Source: a virus | Taxonomy: Duplodnaviria > Heunggongvirae > Uroviricota > Caudoviricetes | Direction: 5' to 3' (one strand) | DNA: 32,340 nucleotides | Virus record (IMG/VR): IMGVR_UViG_2711768060_000010 | In this document: positions 7,442 through 29,720 of the stretch, one piece after another | Layout: each line of letters starts with the position of its first letter | Numbering within the stretch: position 1 is the stretch's first letter | Made by a program: the position numbers and the translations under genes | The notes under the pieces: generated by a model | What the model was told of the DNA's origin: nothing | Databases searched by the model: none | What the model saw: only the letters and a program-made list of their open reading frames with translations

Positions 7442-7738
7442 ATCCAGAGCCATTTGCTTCTGATTGGGTGACAGATTTTTTAATAAGGTTTGTACCAGAG
7501 CGTCACCCGTTTTAGCGCTGGGGCTGAGAGTGTGGGAAAACGTCAAATTCATAACAAAAGTGTGCCCACACTCCACATCTGCGCATGCGCAGTAAATATC
7601 TGCAATCTGGCGGTGCTTTCGGTTAGTTTTGCGAATCACAGCCTTAGATCCGCACTCCGGACATTCAATTTTCAGGACTCTCATATTCCATTCTCCGGCT
7701 GTCAAATAATGCCTGGATTTTAGCCTTTTTTGACTCAT
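7415..7738 (-). CDS. Ogr/Delta-family zinc-finger transcriptional activator (late gene activator candidate)
   Basis: Cys pattern CPEC...RKTNR...YCACADVECGHTF parallels Ogr/B (CPxC...RTSR...QCxNxxCxxTF); the ATG at 7738 overlaps the portal stop (ATGA), alternative internal start at 7684 has a GGAG RBS. Confidence 0.65.
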   Translation of the reverse strand: MSQKRLKSRHYLTAGEWNMRVLKIECPECGSKAVIRKTNRKHRQIADIYCACADVECGHTFVMNLTFSHTLSPSAKTGDALVQTLLKNLSPNQKQMALDLLKAAPAA

Positions 7739-8787
7739 GCTGCACCCTTCACCGTTGTTTCTTCAGTAAAATTCAAATGCAGGTGGCGCGGAATTTCCGG
7801 ATCGCTGTTGATGGCCATCGCCAGGCGGCGCTGAATGGGCAGCACTTCATTCTTTTTGTAGGTGCGCTCAATCTTTTCCGGGTCGCCCAGCCCGGCAGTA
7901 TTCTGCGGAACAATACCTGCAAGCCCGGCCGGAAAGCGGTGCGCGTTCAGAATGTCCTGGGCGCTGATGTTCTTCACGCTCGCAAATTCATCCTTGGCCG
8001 AAATGTCCCCCATCTCAATAAACTTGATCGCGTCACCGTCGCCGCCAGGGATGTTCACCAGGATGGTGGAGAAGTTGCCGATCCCCTTGCTGTCCCGCAG
8101 CTGCCGTTCAATCTCCTCCTCCATTTCGTCCGTCATGCTGGGGTCACGGGTATACAGAATGCCGCCCGTGTGTGCGCCGTTGTGGTAGTAGCGACGGCGA
8201 AAAATAACTGCCTCACTGTTCAGCAGGGCAGAGTGAACGCCGCCGATGTAGTCCGGCAGACCATAGATGTGCTGCTGCGGGTCGTACATCTTGATGAAAA
8301 TGATATCGTCAGGCGGGAACGCCAGCGGCTCGCCTTCCTGTAAAACCACGTAATCCCCTGGCACAGTCTCCGCGTTTTCTCTCTCCTTTCGTCGGCGGAG
8401 GTAAAGCCCCGGCAGCGGCTGAAGCCCGATCACGTCTCCCCAGCCATTACGGATTTTGGCCACAGCGATATCACCAAAGGTCAGGTAATCAAAAACAGCG
8501 GCCTCCAGCTCGTCGAACGTCAGGCCGCCGCCCTGATAGTCCGCCGTCACCATGTTTTTACGGGCGTGGATAATCCCGCCGTGCTGGCCGTTCAGGTTGA
8601 TAAGCTGCGCCAGCGCCAGACGGTCAATCGGCTGGGTGTAGTGGTCGGCGGCGTTGTCGTACCAGATTTCCCGGTAATCGGTTCCGGTAGTCAGTACCGG
8701 TTCTGGTTTGCCAAAGCTGATAATGCTCATTTTTTTGGACTTATCGCCGCGCTGTTCGCGCTTCACAAAACGTTTCTTTTTGCTCAT
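7735..8787 (-). CDS. Portal protein (P2 gpQ-like)
   Basis: 350-aa ORF directly downstream of the terminase large subunit on the same strand; size matches P2 Q (about 344 aa). Confidence 0.85.
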   Translation of the reverse strand: MSKKKRFVKREQRGDKSKKMSIISFGKPEPVLTTGTDYREIWYDNAADHYTQPIDRLALAQLINLNGQHGGIIHARKNMVTADYQGGGLTFDELEAAVFDYLTFGDIAVAKIRNGWGDVIGLQPLPGLYLRRRKERENAETVPGDYVVLQEGEPLAFPPDDIIFIKMYDPQQHIYGLPDYIGGVHSALLNSEAVIFRRRYYHNGAHTGGILYTRDPSMTDEMEEEIERQLRDSKGIGNFSTILVNIPGGDGDAIKFIEMGDISAKDEFASVKNISAQDILNAHRFPAGLAGIVPQNTAGLGDPEKIERTYKKNEVLPIQRRLAMAINSDPEIPRHLHLNFTEETTVKGAA

Positions 8788-10556
8788 GCTGCTTGTTTCC
8801 TTACACCCCAGCGGGATTTTGGTTTGTTTTCATAGTTGAGTGGTTCGTTATGCAGGGCGTGGGTGATTGCCCAGAATGCCTCTGCGTGGCCAGTGTCCTG
8901 GCTGCGGTCTGCAACAAAGGTCATTGCGTTACCGCTCTGCGTGGTAGTGCGCCGCACTGACATAAAGCTGGCGGGGATTTCCTTCAGGTTTTTGTCCCAC
9001 TCGATACGCTGGCTTTCCACCACATCGGCGGCCTTCAGTACCAGCTGGTTTTTGGTGTTCATGTCGTAGCGAATCGGGACAACAACCTTCATGGCAAAGT
9101 GCTGGATATTGTCAAACACCCCCTGGCCGATCCCGGTTACGTCCACGCCCAGATAAGTGAAGTTGTACTGGTCAAACAGCTTTTCGATCTGCTTTGCCTG
9201 GTGACGGAAGTTCATGCCCTTCCAGTAAATCACCTTCAGCACGCGGAATTTTTCCACGGCAAACATCGGCGGGGCGACAATCACAAAACACGACAAATCG
9301 CCGCTGCGTGCCGGGTCAAAGCCGCCCCATACTGGCCTGTCACCAAACGGCCGTTTTGCATCCGGGTCGTGATCCTGCCAGGTGTCCACCTCCACGCCGC
9401 ACGCTTCCAGGTCGGAAAAGCTGAAAACGGAATCCTTGCTGTCCACGAACACGCACATGTAAAGCATGTCGAATGTGGCGGTGTTGTAGCGGTTGCGCAG
9501 CTTCTCGATGTTGGCCAGATTGAAGCCACCCGCAATGGCATCTTCCATGGTGATGACATAGCGCCACTGGCCATCCGGGCAGAGCCGTCCACCGTTCCGC
9601 ATTTCATCGAACAGTGGAAACGTAATGGCCGCACGTTTCTTGCTGCCCTGTTTCCACTCTTCACCCGTCCAGAACGGATACGCCTGGTGCGTTTTGGCCG
9701 ATGGCGTGGAAAAGTAGGTGGTACGCCATTTGTCATGTGTGGCCATCGCGCTGGCCACTTCATTGAGTTTTGCAAAGTTGGGCACCCAAAAATATTCATC
9801 ACAGTAAAGATGGCCACTGTATGACTGGGCGGTGTTTTTGTTGGTAGACAGGAACCGCAGCTCTGCGCCGTTGCTTAAGCGGATCGGGTTCCCCGTCAGC
9901 GTGATGCCAAAATACTGTTCTGCAATGTTGACGATGTAAGACCGGAACACCTCCGCCTGTGCTTTGGATGCGGACAGGAAGATTTGCGGATCGCCCGTCA
10001 TTACCGCATTTTCGAACGCTTCAAACGCAAAGTACCAGGTTGCACCGATCTGGCGACTTTTCAGGATGTTCCTGACCAGCTGGCCTATGTTGCGGCGCAG
10101 GTGTTTCTGATATTCGAAAAGATGCTCCTCTGCCCAGGTGTCAAAATCCTCCTGGGTCAGAGACGAGATATCGTTTTTCTTGTACTTGCGTTTGCTGCGC
10201 GGCTCGTCGTCGTCCCCTCGCGCAGCTGCTTGCCGTTCCCCCTGGCTGGAGGCCAGCTTTTCTTTATGTTTATTGCTCTGGGCACGCAGCTTTGTGGCGT
10301 GAGCAATAAGCAAATCCATTTCTTTTAAATCCAGATCCGTTTTATTGTCGCGCCCGGCTAACAGCTGGTAACGGCGTTCAATTGCCTCCTCTGTGCTTTC
10401 GAAACTGAGCAGGTCAGCCCATTTATATTTTTCTGCCCAGTAGTAAACGATCCGCGCATTCGGCAGATTTAATTCTGATGCAATTTCTTTGGGCGTGTAA
10501 CGGCGCAAGTAGAGTGCGCGGACAACGCCTTTTAATTCGTCTGAGTATTTAGCCAT
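8784..10556 (-). CDS. Terminase large subunit, ATPase (P2 gpP-like)
   Basis: 590-aa ORF (P2 P is 590 aa); divergent from the O-N-M-L operon as in P2/186. Confidence 0.9.
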   Translation of the reverse strand: MAKYSDELKGVVRALYLRRYTPKEIASELNLPNARIVYYWAEKYKWADLLSFESTEEAIERRYQLLAGRDNKTDLDLKEMDLLIAHATKLRAQSNKHKEKLASSQGERQAAARGDDDEPRSKRKYKKNDISSLTQEDFDTWAEEHLFEYQKHLRRNIGQLVRNILKSRQIGATWYFAFEAFENAVMTGDPQIFLSASKAQAEVFRSYIVNIAEQYFGITLTGNPIRLSNGAELRFLSTNKNTAQSYSGHLYCDEYFWVPNFAKLNEVASAMATHDKWRTTYFSTPSAKTHQAYPFWTGEEWKQGSKKRAAITFPLFDEMRNGGRLCPDGQWRYVITMEDAIAGGFNLANIEKLRNRYNTATFDMLYMCVFVDSKDSVFSFSDLEACGVEVDTWQDHDPDAKRPFGDRPVWGGFDPARSGDLSCFVIVAPPMFAVEKFRVLKVIYWKGMNFRHQAKQIEKLFDQYNFTYLGVDVTGIGQGVFDNIQHFAMKVVVPIRYDMNTKNQLVLKAADVVESQRIEWDKNLKEIPASFMSVRRTTTQSGNAMTFVADRSQDTGHAEAFWAITHALHNEPLNYENKPKSRWGVRKQAA

Positions 10557-18224: not shown

Positions 18225-20287
18225 AACAGTTAGATTTTACATTAAGCCTGATCGATAAATTGTCACGCCCGTTAAAACAGGCGCAGGGCAGCGTGACCGG
18301 CTTTGCGGAAAAATCAAACGCAGCGTTTAAGCAGATTGGCGGCGGGGCGCTGGCGCTGGTCGGAACGGGGATGGCCATTAAAAGCGCTTTGTCTCCGGCC
18401 ATTGAGATGTATGACGCGCTGAACGATGCGGCCGCAAAAGGCATCGACAACACTGCGCTTAAGACGGTGCAGCGCGATGCGCTGACGTTCAGCATGACCT
18501 ACGGTGCCAGCGCACTGGATTTTGTTAAGTCCACTGAGGAGATTAACACCGCCATTGCCGGGCTGACCGGAACGGAACTGCCGAAAGTGACCAAAACCGC
18601 CAATACCCTGGCGTTTGCCCTCAAAGCCACCTCCGCGGATACGGCGGAGTTTATGGGGCAAATGTTCGGCAACTTCTCGTCAGATGCTGAGCGGCTGGGC
18701 AAAGTCCAGTTTGCGGAACAGCTGGCGGGCAAGATGGTTTTCATGCGCAAAACCTTTGGCACCGAAATGGCCACTATTAAAGACCTGATGGAAGGCGCGC
18801 GCGGCGTGGGTACAAATTACGGCGTAGGGCTTGATGAACAGCTGACCGTGCTGGGGCAACTGAACCGCACGCTGGGTTCTGAAGCCAGTAGTGCCTATGA
18901 AGGCTTTATGACCGGGGCGATTGAAGGCGGCAAAAAGCTGGGGCTGTCCTTCACGGACTCCACCGGGAAAATGCTGTCCATGCCTGAAATGCTGATCAAG
19001 CTGCAGGGCAAATATGGCAAGAGCCTGGAAGGGAACCTGAAAGCACAGGCGGAGCTGGATGAAGCCTTTGGTGACAGTTCGGCAGTGGTTAAGCATCTTT
19101 ATGGCAACGTGGCGCTGCTGCAGAGAAACATCACCGAACTGGGCGGCGCTGACGGGCTGAAGCGTACACAGGAAATGGCCAGCAAGATGGTGAAGCCGTG
19201 GGATCGGTTCGTGGCTATTCTGACGGCGATTAAAACCGTGATTGGGCTGACGCTGATCCCGGTACTGTATCCGGTGCTGAATCGCCTGGCGGATATGGGG
19301 CAGACGTTTGCACGCTGGATGCAGCTGTTTCCCAATATCGCGCGTGTGGTGGGTTATGCAGCGATGGCACTGCTTAGCTTTGCCGCCGTGGGTGCAGTGG
19401 TCAACATCCTGATGGGTGTTTCTGCTTTCGTTATGGGTGGCCTGCGCGGGATCTGGGTGGCGCTGGCCTCAGTGACGCGCATTTACACCGCCACTATCTG
19501 GCTGGCACAGAAAGCCGTTGTTGTCTGGAATATCACCCTGGGTGCGTTGCGAGGCATCCTGCTGGCGGTGCGTATGTCGGCAATTATGGCCGGGGTGGGC
19601 ATCAATCTTATGAGCCTGCCGATTCTGCTGGTTATCGGGGCGATTGCTGCGCTGGCCGCTGGTTGTTACCTGCTGATCCGTAACTGGGAAGCGATTAAAA
19701 CCGCTGTCATGAATACGGAAGCCTTTGCAGCAGCTGCAGCAGTGGTTAAGTGGCTGGCGGGTATTTTTGCCAGCGCCTGGCAATACATCAGCGATGGATG
19801 GAATGCCTTTACTGCATTGCTGGCCGGGTTCTCTCCTGCGCAGGCGCTTAGGGGAATGGCCACGGGCATCATGACGATGTTTGATAACGTCTGGCAGACC
19901 ATCAAAGACAGTTTCCTTAAATCATGGAACTGGATTGTAGAGAAGCTAAATAAAATACCGGGCGTGAATATAGGGCTGGCAGAAACTTCAGCGCAAGCAG
20001 CTGCGGTTCCGGTGCCTGAATTAAAACAGGTTGCTAAAGCAGAGGGGGCAGCATCATCCCTGCCACAAAATATTAACGCCAGTAATCCGCAGCCGCTTCT
20101 GACTTCAAATACTCTTTCCACAGGTGGTGAGTTAAAGGGCATTGAAAAGGGCGGTCTTTCAAAAACAATTAACAGCAATTCTAAATCTGTTGTTGATAAC
20201 AGTAAAAAAATTGAAAACGTTAATATTTATCCAAAAGAAATGTTAACGCCTGGCCAGTTAATGGAGTATCAGGAGTTGGGCGCATGA
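18221..20287 (+). CDS. Tail tape measure protein
   Basis: 688-aa ORF, Ala/Gly-rich with a central hydrophobic block; follows the chaperone/frameshift pair, the canonical position for a tape measure gene. Confidence 0.85.
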   Translation: MKQLDFTLSLIDKLSRPLKQAQGSVTGFAEKSNAAFKQIGGGALALVGTGMAIKSALSPAIEMYDALNDAAAKGIDNTALKTVQRDALTFSMTYGASALDFVKSTEEINTAIAGLTGTELPKVTKTANTLAFALKATSADTAEFMGQMFGNFSSDAERLGKVQFAEQLAGKMVFMRKTFGTEMATIKDLMEGARGVGTNYGVGLDEQLTVLGQLNRTLGSEASSAYEGFMTGAIEGGKKLGLSFTDSTGKMLSMPEMLIKLQGKYGKSLEGNLKAQAELDEAFGDSSAVVKHLYGNVALLQRNITELGGADGLKRTQEMASKMVKPWDRFVAILTAIKTVIGLTLIPVLYPVLNRLADMGQTFARWMQLFPNIARVVGYAAMALLSFAAVGAVVNILMGVSAFVMGGLRGIWVALASVTRIYTATIWLAQKAVVVWNITLGALRGILLAVRMSAIMAGVGINLMSLPILLVIGAIAALAAGCYLLIRNWEAIKTAVMNTEAFAAAAAVVKWLAGIFASAWQYISDGWNAFTALLAGFSPAQALRGMATGIMTMFDNVWQTIKDSFLKSWNWIVEKLNKIPGVNIGLAETSAQAAAVPVPELKQVAKAEGAASSLPQNINASNPQPLLTSNTLSTGGELKGIEKGGLSKTINSNSKSVVDNSKKIENVNIYPKEMLTPGQLMEYQELGA

Positions 20288-20613
20288 GTGAAATTCTGTA
20301 TATCGACTTATTTATCCAAAATGGTGACTTTGTTCTTAATACAGGTAATGAACCTGAATTATGCAACAACCGTAAAAGTATCGGGCAGGATATTATTCAT
20401 TCCATCATTGAAAGCGGTCTGGCCACACAGTTAATTGGTGAGCGCAGTCCAACGTTAAGGGCTGATATTTTCACCCGCCTGGAATTACTGATTGAAGATG
20501 ATGAACGCATTGTGCCGGGAACCGTGGAAATCAGCGAGGAAAGCCAGAAGCGTTTATGGATTACAGCCAGCACATATGATTTTGGCGGAATATCTGCCCA
20601 GGTGGATTTATGA
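20284..20613 (+). CDS. Putative baseplate wedge protein (gp25/W-like)
   Basis: 109-aa ORF between tape measure and the J-like gene; assignment by size and position. Confidence 0.4.
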   Translation: MSEILYIDLFIQNGDFVLNTGNEPELCNNRKSIGQDIIHSIIESGLATQLIGERSPTLRADIFTRLELLIEDDERIVPGTVEISEESQKRLWITASTYDFGGISAQVDL

Positions 20614-27640: not shown

Positions 27641-27664
27641 AGCCCGCAACCGCGGGCTTTTTTA
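27641..27664 (+). terminator. Rho-independent terminator of the tail operon
   Basis: AGCCCGC aacc GCGGGCT hairpin followed by TTTTTT, 8 nt after the stop codon at 27631-27633. Confidence 0.8.
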
Positions 27665-27718: not shown

Positions 27719-28346
27719 TCACCACACGCAATCTGCCGCAGTATGCGCGGCGCTGACAGAATCAAACCCGCCTCAACACCCAAAACAGATCGTGAGCACA
27801 GCGAGCCGCTGAGCGCGTCACAGCCTGACAAAATAAATGTGTCGCAGACAAAAACGGCACTACACCGCACCCGCCTGCGGTTTTTGGATCATAAAAATTT
27901 TTCAGTTTTATTTTTCTGCAAACCAGACCGCCAGACCGCGCCAGCGCTAGCGGCTTTGCGGAAAACCAGAACTGAAAAGATTGAAAAGAATTTCAGTGTT
28001 TTTCACATTTATGGATCTGGAAAGGATCTTGGTAATGATATAAGTGATTGAAAAATAAATTTATTTTAAATTTTGTGTGTGTCGAAAGGATCGTTTTGGC
28101 CTTCCGCTTCGGTCTGTGGGGATGCAGCTGAAGCCAGAGCTGGGGCGGTACAAGGCAAAACAGAGCGGTACATAGAAAACTGAAAAAAACTGCATGCATT
28201 TCATGAAAACCAGCGACTAACAATTGCATCGAAATCTAATTTTAATCTTGGAACTTAAGAAAACTTTTGCCACATTAGTAGTCGCTTTTTAGTTGTGGAT
28301 TTTCTTCCGATGATTACTTGGCAGAGCTTACATTAAGGCATTCGAT

Positions 28347-29465
28347 ATGACTGAAAAATTCACCGCAATTTTGTTAGACACAAGTATCTACGATCAGTAC
28401 GGATTAAAGCTTGAGAAAGGACTACTGGGTAAGCTTTCCCAGTTCAGCCGAACCCCGACAACGTTTTTGATACCGGATGTAATTTACAACGAAGTCAAAA
28501 ATCATCTTGAAAGAAAAATCAGGACTTCACGTGGCTCTCTTGAGAAAGCTTTCGAAGAGGCTGGCGATCATCTTTTTTTTGATGGAAGCGAACTAAATGA
28601 CGCAAAAAGAACATTGATTGAAGGCAGAGAAGTTGAAGGATTAGGAAAGAGTAGATTAGACAGATTTGTTGGCGTAACAGATGCGGAGGTTTTGACTACT
28701 GGGGATTACGTTTCGGTACCTGAACTACTTGAACGATATTTCTCTTCTGAAGCTCCTTTCGCAGATACAGGGAAGAAAAAAAATGAGTTTCCTGATGCGA
28801 TCACATTAATGGCCGTCCAAGCTTGGGCTGAAGAGAATGGTGAAAATGTTCTTGCCGTAGCAAGAGATGACGATTGGCAGAGATTTTGTGCTGATGCTGA
28901 GAATTTGCATTATGAACCTGACTTATCAAAGGCTTTAGCACACTTCAATGAAGAAACCGCACCTTATGAACTAATTGATAACTTACAAAAAGCACTTGCT
29001 GAAGGACAGGCCGGTAAATTCTTGCATGATGTTGCTGTACACCTTGAGTCAACCTTTGACGGTTTTGCACCAGAACAAGAGGCAGATTCATATTTGTACT
29101 GGGAGGCTGATGGATGCTCAGGTGGATTTGAAGATTTTGAGTTTACAGATAATTACTTCACTGTCATTGACAAGGATGAAAACTGGGTTGTTTTAGAAGC
29201 ATTTGCAGAAATTTCACTTTACGCAGATGGTGATTTCTCCCTATCAGTTTACGATTCATTCGATAAGGATCATGTCTACATGGGGTCAATCACCAAGCGT
29301 GCCGAGGAAACATATACATCCAGAATACTAATAACAATCTCCGGAGACTTGTCAGGTTCTATAGATGATTTGACCGTTGAAGATGTGGAAGTAATAGAGC
29401 GTCCGACGTCGATGGATTTTGGGGAGCTGGAATTAGCATATGAACCTGACGAGCAAGATTTGTAA
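28347..29465 (+). CDS. PIN-like nuclease domain protein with acidic C-terminal domain of unknown function (accessory/cargo gene; candidate single-gene defence or toxin)
   Basis: 372-aa ORF with AAGG RBS; PIN-fold hallmarks in order: hydrophobic strand then Asp (AILLDTSIY), FLIPDVIYNEV, and NEFPDAITLMAVQAWAEENGENVLAVARDDDWQRF; about 35-40 percent GC by eye against about 55-60 percent in the prophage; isolated behind a terminator and a roughly 630-bp leader. Confidence 0.6.
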   Translation: MTEKFTAILLDTSIYDQYGLKLEKGLLGKLSQFSRTPTTFLIPDVIYNEVKNHLERKIRTSRGSLEKAFEEAGDHLFFDGSELNDAKRTLIEGREVEGLGKSRLDRFVGVTDAEVLTTGDYVSVPELLERYFSSEAPFADTGKKKNEFPDAITLMAVQAWAEENGENVLAVARDDDWQRFCADAENLHYEPDLSKALAHFNEETAPYELIDNLQKALAEGQAGKFLHDVAVHLESTFDGFAPEQEADSYLYWEADGCSGGFEDFEFTDNYFTVIDKDENWVVLEAFAEISLYADGDFSLSVYDSFDKDHVYMGSITKRAEETYTSRILITISGDLSGSIDDLTVEDVEVIERPTSMDFGELELAYEPDEQDL

Positions 29466-29565
29466 CAAATATGATTGGGCACTATCGCTGTCGCCATTTT
29501 GTCGCCAACTCAATCACCGTTTTATTGCAAGTATTTGAATTTAATGATTTTTATTTTCAGGCAAC

Positions 29566-29608
29566 AAAAAACCCATCAACCTTGAACCGAAATGGCGGGG
29601 TTGATGGG
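29566..29608 (-). terminator. Terminator-like hairpin (minus-strand orientation)
   Basis: CCCATCAACC / GGTTGATGGG 10-bp perfect stem with a 17-nt loop; the A6 run on the plus strand becomes a T-run after the stem on the minus strand; about 110 bp downstream of the ybjL stop. Confidence 0.45.
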
Positions 29609-29720
29609 CTCCACAAAATGGGGACATCAAAGAAAAGCAGTGGCACTAATTAAGACTGATGCCCTGCGGAAAAGTTCTGCGGTTGTGCAAAAAAATTTCA
29701 TTTTCAGGGCAACTTCAGTT

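Follow-up and report, generated by a model that had tools for sequence, protein, structure and literature searches.

The question raised by this locus is what a solitary gene does at the right-hand end of a tailed-phage prophage in Escherichia coli. The window (by which we mean the whole 32,340-nucleotide stretch analysed, IMG/VR record IMGVR_UViG_2711768060_000010) begins within an integrase gene, carries P2-family head genes and an HP1/ESSI-2-type tail, and near its other end holds an intact open-reading frame (ORF) at 28347-29465 on the + strand, which starts with ATG and encodes 372 amino acids (aa), coordinates that agree exactly with those of a first-pass annotation made from the letters alone. 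RefSeq labels the product “PIN domain-containing protein” (WP_053289330.1, E. coli LR-51, NZ_AP027550.1) and gives no further annotation there. The ORF, the RefSeq entry, the alignment to the phage-defence protein Cosus (Brc24) and the ratio of non-synonymous to synonymous substitution (dN/dS) together identify a complete gene of the DUF4935/PIN_12 family, to which Cosus belongs. The prophage is ESSI-2-like (HP1-type) and has rybB as its integration site; its right end contains a defence hotspot in which the gene sits as single-gene cargo, and we consider it likely that the gene protects the lysogen against other phages. The anti-phage role is likely because the protein is homologous over its full length to the experimentally validated Cosus, and because the same slot holds known or candidate defence genes in related prophages; the first-pass suggestion of anti-phage cargo at a prophage end was, to this extent, well founded.

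From profile searches and a structural model, the N-terminal half of the protein is a predicted PIN nuclease domain with a VapC-like core (residues 8-177, positions 28368-28877, + strand). Pfam PIN_12 (PF16289, formerly DUF4935) matches these residues at E = 8.1e-32 and 111.4 bits, against a gathering threshold of 32, over the entire profile (1-172 of 172). A family alignment of 95 diverse full-length homologs, the window protein included, keeps D11, E49, E147, D150 and D174 in all 95 sequences, which bears out the ordered acidic residues of a PIN-fold nuclease that had been read by eye from the translation. The domain contains a long helical insert at about residues 44-111. The AlphaFold2 (AF2) model computed from the 95-sequence alignment reached a mean pLDDT of 94.7 and a pTM of 0.89, and a structure search on the PIN half, as had been proposed at first pass, returned the toxins VapC15 (4chg) and VapC2 (3zvk) in Foldseek with a probability of 0.99 and TM scores of 0.58-0.63 normalised to the target. 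A profile search of Protein Data Bank sequences with the family alignment found nothing, and neither NCBIfam nor PHROGs gave an informative match for the window protein.

The likeness to VapC15 and VapC2 lies in the PIN fold and in the arrangement of the acidic residues. Unlike these toxins, with which it shares 15-17% identity, the window protein has a helical insert of ~65 residues and a C-terminal domain of ~180 residues, is almost three times longer, and is accompanied by no VapB antitoxin gene. VapC toxins are typically about 130-150 aa long. A VapBC-type operon is likewise not seen, as no cognate antitoxin lies immediately upstream, where there is instead a 713-nt gap with terminator-like hairpins.

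The first-pass annotation had gone further and proposed a previously undescribed system, a claim that fails on two counts, as the architecture is that of DUF4935 and one member of the family has since been validated. DUF4935 was described in 2017 by Matelska et al. (PMC5499597) as proteins of about 350-380 aa in total, with an N-terminal VapC-group PIN-like domain bearing 4-5 conserved acidic residues, a long helical insert after strand 2 and a less conserved alpha/beta C-terminal region without detectable homology; the genes were mostly monocistronic, and the function was unknown at that date. This classification paper was the only literature found on PF16289/DUF4935. The window protein fits the published description exactly (372 aa, C-terminal ~180 aa without homology, monocistronic) and shows no structural difference from it; the family as we see it is a large one, whose members vary very little in length (about 370-376 aa). 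Our additions to the description are a confident AF2 model, the acidity of the C-terminal half throughout the family, an invariant DxxDxD loop and the context of a prophage hotspot.

The validated member, Cosus, is the integron cassette brc24, which carries a PIN_12 domain and was reported in “Mobile Integrons Encode Phage Defense Systems” (bioRxiv 10.1101/2024.07.02.601719). According to that preprint, cells carrying Cosus are fully resistant to T7: plaques did not form, and 1e8 pfu yielded no escape mutants. The substitutions T12A, D14A or D96A reduce protection more than 1e5-fold, so that defence depends at least in part on PIN-domain residues; resistance holds at both high and low multiplicity of infection (MOI), and protection at high MOI argues against classical abortive infection. 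The same study reports a fitness cost of about 11% for strongly expressed Cosus, and that the gene under a strong promoter could not be introduced into Pseudomonas aeruginosa (bioRxiv 10.1101/2024.07.02.601719).

Several lines connect brc24 to the window gene. In translation, the primers used for its mutagenesis give ...KKNEFPDAIALLALEGWA... and ...AVSQDKGWKKF..., the invariant motifs of the family, and the brc24 cassette sequence given in Table S3 runs on into the C-terminal motif. The Table S3 DNA maps to the IncC plasmid pKAZ2 (KR827391.1), at a locus also matched by tblastn with the window protein, and the encoded protein, Brc24 (ALG87191.1, 382 aa), matches PIN_12 at E = 2e-36. BLASTP aligns residues 5-371 of the window protein with residues 8-379 of Cosus/Brc24, collinearly, at 31% identity and 55% positives (E = 1e-65), pairing Cosus D14 with D11, D153 with D150 and D177 with D174. 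The two thus share along their whole length the PIN_12 domain, the helical linker and an acidic beta domain with the motif FxxSVxDSxDKDxVxMG, and both are single mobile genes of similar size (372 against 382 aa). They differ in their carriers, an attC integron cassette for Cosus and a prophage end slot for the window gene, and in sequence, at only 31% identity; the activity of the window protein against phages is a prediction. What is new is one more member of a known defence family, borne by a prophage and fairly divergent, rather than a system of a new kind.

A number of observations weigh against a defence role and temper this assignment. At 31% identity, the window protein may have a target range or a function other than that of Cosus. 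Of the residues that matter in Cosus, T12 is replaced by L9 (across the family T in 61 of 95 and L in 15 of 95), and D96 aligns with E92 in a poorly conserved loop. The strongly defective Cosus mutants named in the preprint are three of 11 designed, the strain table lists the same three, and D153A and D177A were designed but are not among the mutants named as defective (bioRxiv 10.1101/2024.07.02.601719); a PIN mechanism of the classical four-acid type thus stays conjectural even in Cosus. Escape from the weakened D14A allele maps, in a T7 mutant, to the tail protein gp12, a change that the authors of the preprint read as a possible effect on genome entry and that hints at interference with genome injection (bioRxiv 10.1101/2024.07.02.601719). 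PADLOC 2.0.0 (5027 models), a check suggested at first pass and run on the window protein, matched no family at E ≤ 10; it holds no model for the PIN_12 family, and its database is older than the Cosus report. One homolog, in Aeromonas, is a solitary insert between fdhD and formate-dehydrogenase genes, with neither mobile nor defence neighbours. Finally, no promoter was found in the leader, the + strand of which has no match to a sigma-70 consensus, and a gene this rich in AT may be silenced in E. coli.

The last point leads to a different explanation, that the gene is a silent or decaying AT-rich passenger, acquired horizontally and without function in its E. coli host. The composition is as unusual as the first-pass annotation had judged by eye, with a GC content of 0.410 (GC3 0.336) whereas the prophage stands at 0.536 and the chromosome next to it at 0.490; a value of 0.41 is typical of xenogeneically silenced DNA, and the lack of a consensus promoter and the presence of the gene in only one of 5426 complete E. 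coli genomes would both suit a passenger. Against decay, however, the ORF is intact with every family-invariant residue in place, and relative to an Enterobacter ortholog (86% identity, dS about 1.5) dN/dS is 0.05 in both halves of the protein, which indicates strong purifying selection on the whole of it. The same prophage, with a 99%-identical gene at the same site, is moreover found in many Enterobacter assemblies (129 member sequences, 58 contigs). We therefore regard a functionless passenger as very improbable.

The C-terminal half had been singled out at first pass as strongly acidic and without an assignable domain, and so it proved: residues 191-372 contain 44 D/E against 9 K/R, and no model of Pfam, NCBIfam, PADLOC or PHROGs matches them. 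A helical linker (residues 193-236, 28923-29054, + strand; from the AF2 secondary structure) is the least conserved region, with a mean pairwise identity of 0.21, and is followed by an acidic, beta-rich domain of long antiparallel strands (residues 243-361, 29073-29429, + strand). Within this domain, an invariant acidic hairpin loop, D303-S-F-D306-K-D308 (29253-29270, + strand), lies in the motif FSLSVxDSxDKDxVxxG, which is also present in Cosus; D303 is kept in 95 of 95 homologs, D306 in 94 and D or E at position 308 in 94, and E253 and a DFG motif at 357-359 are conserved too. The charge is a property of the whole family, with a median net value of -30 (range -45 to -17) for the C-terminal half, whereas that of the PIN half is -6. 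When 55 C-terminal domains were scanned against Pfam, the result was scattered noise only. The domain has no solved relative, and an NTF2-like or cystatin-like fold was considered for it as a candidate. Exhaustive searching of 1.84 billion cluster representatives, with just the C-terminal half as query, returned 269 matches, none of them fused to another effector, and essentially all place the domain at about residues 190-370 of ~370-aa proteins, so the domain is exclusive to the PIN_12 architecture rather than a shared module. Two long outliers, P0138 and P0196, were considered as other fusions and rejected as low-complexity repeat proteins.

The gene lies inside the prophage. The last baseplate protein upstream of it is 71-76% identical to those of Cronobacter phage ESSI-2 and the ESSI2_ev phages, and downstream the small RNA (sRNA) gene rybB occupies 29563-29641 on the - strand (Rfam RF00110, 105.3 bits against a gathering score of 40), the sole real match of an Rfam scan that found nothing in the leader or in the PIN_12 gene. 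The att core at 29563-29576 (reading AACAAAAAACCCAT on the + strand) coincides with the 3′ end of rybB and forms the right prophage boundary; as this 14-bp core is repeated 728 bp to the left of the window start, the 3′ end of rybB is the site at which the phage has integrated. Alignments with prophage-free E. coli genomes begin at about 29536. The stop codon of the PIN_12 gene falls 97 nt before the core, and the prophage/chromosome junction of the first-pass annotation therefore stands as regards cargo at a prophage end, but the gene is internal to the prophage, and what the prophage adjoins at this end is rybB, not ybjL as such. Transcriptional read-through from the PIN_12 gene would be antisense to rybB.

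Upstream, the gene is as solitary as had been described, set behind a terminator and a long leader. The baseplate gene ends 713 nt before it; a terminator-like hairpin (27641-27658, + strand; 7-bp stem with six GC pairs, followed by a T-run) stands directly 3′ of the baseplate gene, and a second terminator-like hairpin lies between the two genes at 27864-27881. No partner ORF was found, the leader having only ORFs of 20-36 aa, all without support. The AT-rich leader itself (28006-28346, + strand) holds no credible ORF on scanning and travels with the cargo gene, since homology to a related prophage in E. coli EcPF15 ends at 28005.

This EcPF15 prophage is degraded and occupies the same site. 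Homology to it stops at 28005 and resumes at 29558, and between the two points it carries two unrelated small genes (120 and 132 aa), so that the interval 28006-29557 (GC 0.399) represents a replaceable cargo slot. We surveyed the corresponding slot in 25 related prophage ends from different species, retrieved with the last baseplate gene as anchor, and its occupants vary between relatives while its flanks are conserved, which marks it as hypervariable. A non-coding segment of ~199 nt (27807-28005, + strand) precedes the slot and is conserved at 75-93% identity in about 20 of the 25 related prophages, across ~10 genera; beyond it, the sequences are unrelated between genomes. Its features are an invariant hairpin, ACCGCACCCGCCTGCGGT, with a T-run behind it, TTTCAG/CTGAAA repeats and several GATC sites, and its alignment shows invariant hairpin blocks and indels that are not multiples of three. 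The segment may serve for termination, for regulation or as a handle for recombination. An ORF of 102-122 aa that some pipelines call across it looks spurious; the window's version (27743-28051, 102 aa) was rejected as a partner gene on account of the non-triplet indels, the hairpin and repeat blocks and the lack of a Pfam match.

Six of the ten largest slot occupants match known or candidate defence models. For example, one slot encodes bSEFIR (L030, E = 4e-68), another an ApeA-like HEPN protein (L034, Pfam HEPN_Apea), whilst PADLOC assigned an FRG-domain protein, PDC-S15, to two slots (L027 and L047), PDC-S64 to four (L033, L044, L045 and L049) and PDC-M03A/B, a HipA-like and HIRAN pair, to one (L046); L027, L044 and L045 are likewise integrated at rybB. 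With defence-type genes occupying the same position in relatives, the slot is a defence hotspot. A further occupant, in Buttiauxella sp. A111 (L031, about 7584-9007 of that locus), is a solitary 474-aa gene with a PIN_8 domain (Pfam PF18476, E = 4e-58) and no PADLOC match, and is by its sequence a second lone candidate for a PIN-type defence gene at this hotspot. Several occupants of the slots in L026, L035, L048, L049, L032 and L002 match neither Pfam nor PADLOC; those without a match include a 265-aa Cys-rich protein in Citrobacter R56, membrane proteins of 193-283 aa and the EcPF15 pair.

We know of no earlier description of such a hotspot in ESSI-2-type prophages, at the end that lies next to rybB. 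Rousset et al. reportedly described accessory defence hotspots in P2-like phages and in P4-like satellites in 2022, and the slot resembles them in its fixed position in a temperate phage, its conserved flanks and its unrelated defence genes swapped between relatives. It differs in belonging to an ESSI-2/HP1-type lineage and in lying at the extreme right end, from the baseplate gene and the ~199-nt segment to attR.

Two further features of the prophage were observed outside the slot. Immediately left of the window, the ~730 bp from attL to the integrase gene (L004, about 131-860) contain an ORF of Gly/Pro-rich repeats, with DNA repeat units of the type GGxCCxGGxCCxGTxTAC; this region may be a second cargo position, at the left end of the prophage. 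Within the prophage, the GC content also dips at 1001-1500 (0.39, the cI/regulatory region) and at 20001-20500 (0.41, the tail-fibre region), and both dips look like mosaic modules.

Presence and absence of the gene, a comparison proposed at first pass, bears on whether the phage might need it for itself. The gene sits within the prophage, directly downstream of the late tail operon and on the same strand, and a Vibrio cholerae homolog lies within a filamentous phage genome, as would be expected of a nuclease that degrades host RNA or DNA during lytic growth or induction, or that competes with co-resident elements, rather than one that makes the lysogen immune. The two terminator-like hairpins and the 713-nt gap nevertheless separate it from the late operon. 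A tblastn search of 50,697 phage records gave no match, and PIN_12 is missing from 25 of 25 related prophages of other species; these absences imply that the gene is dispensable for the phage. Plasmids, integrons and chromosomal islets that have no phage nearby also commonly carry homologs, and we hold a use in the phage's own growth to be decidedly unlikely.

The contexts in which homologs occur point instead to defence. In Enterobacter, a remnant of the same prophage (L013, L016; 1766-9119) has lost its structural genes and kept int, cI and the PIN_12 gene, along with a HEC-01A/B pair (an ABC ATPase and a DUF4276 protein, PARIS-like); the pair lies between int and cI, and both defence loci were thus retained despite the decay of the phage. 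The ATPase/DUF4276 pair was initially a candidate for PARIS itself and is better described as PARIS-like, since PADLOC gives HEC-01A/B with secondary AriA matches. The V. cholerae homolog (54% identity) is inside a filamentous prophage of the Zot/Rep_trans type (L019-L021), where it and a divergent 123-aa gene stand between Zot and the repressor; the circularly permuted gene order in one contig (L021) indicates that this pair belongs to the phage genome. In Vreelandella a homolog adjoins a homolog of PD-T4-7, in Providencia another is on an IncC plasmid, and full-length homologs were found in 46 plasmid records from Proteobacteria and Cyanobacteria. The HEC-01 pair, the PD-T4-7 neighbour, the filamentous prophage and the IncC plasmids are the contexts that support the defence role, and the rarity of the gene in E. 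coli (one of 5426 genomes), the low dN/dS of both halves and its survival in the Enterobacter remnant count in its favour too.

A conserved housekeeping nuclease for RNA processing is the explanation least compatible with this distribution. PIN domains do include enzymes of rRNA and tRNA maturation (PMC5499597), and the Aeromonas copy stands among metabolic genes; yet the family is extremely patchy and always in variable or mobile contexts, and the gene is absent from 5425 of the 5426 E. coli genomes. The patchiness effectively refutes a housekeeping function.

The plasmid copies could also be taken to indicate addiction, that is, a single-chain toxin-antitoxin-like module in which a PIN RNase toxin is restrained by its own acidic domain and stabilises the element that carries it. 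The core is VapC-like, the acidic domain comes joined to the PIN domain in every case, homologs occur on IncC plasmids beside partition and psiA genes (psiA and parB in Providencia), and the decayed Enterobacter prophage held on to its copy; the cost of Cosus when strongly expressed and its failure to enter P. aeruginosa would suit a toxin as well. Post-segregational killing, however, requires a separate labile antitoxin, and there is none. In addition, the homolog Cosus has a validated phage-resistance phenotype, and the other slot occupants are defence genes and not toxin-antitoxin pairs. Addiction is in our judgement unlikely, and protection of the lysogen remains the preferred explanation.

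If the gene does protect the lysogen, its VapC-like PIN site (D11/E49/D150/D174) would presumably act as a divalent-metal-dependent endonuclease, probably on RNA as VapC enzymes do. Such nuclease activity early in infection would stop the phage without obligatory suicide of the host. The acidic C-terminal domain, with its net charge of about -30 and its DxxDxD loop, may control or target the nuclease, either through a nucleic-acid-like surface that serves for autoinhibition or sensing or by mediating oligomerisation. The first-pass idea of a sensor or an intramolecular inhibitor is speculative, with nothing in the present data for or against it. For Cosus, a hexamer has been predicted. A bolder version, which we offer as doubtful, is that the acidic domain is a new built-in regulator whose nucleic-acid-mimicking surface occludes or tethers the PIN site until it is displaced by a nucleic-acid-binding protein of the phage, and that the ~199-nt segment acts as a regulatory element or as a handle for recombination in an HP1/ESSI-2-type defence hotspot not mapped before. 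Were this true, Cosus-type proteins would be single-chain “decoy-gated” nucleases.

What had been an anonymous “PIN domain-containing protein” can now be assigned, specifically and in a form open to test, as a prophage-borne defence gene of the Cosus family. The acidic domain with its invariant DxxDxD loop is an obvious target for working out the mechanism of Cosus, and the hotspot at the right end of ESSI-2/HP1-type prophages can be mined for further systems, such as the PIN_8 gene and the uncharacterised occupants. The PIN_12 family as a whole moves among integrons, IncC plasmids, filamentous and tailed prophages and chromosomal islets.

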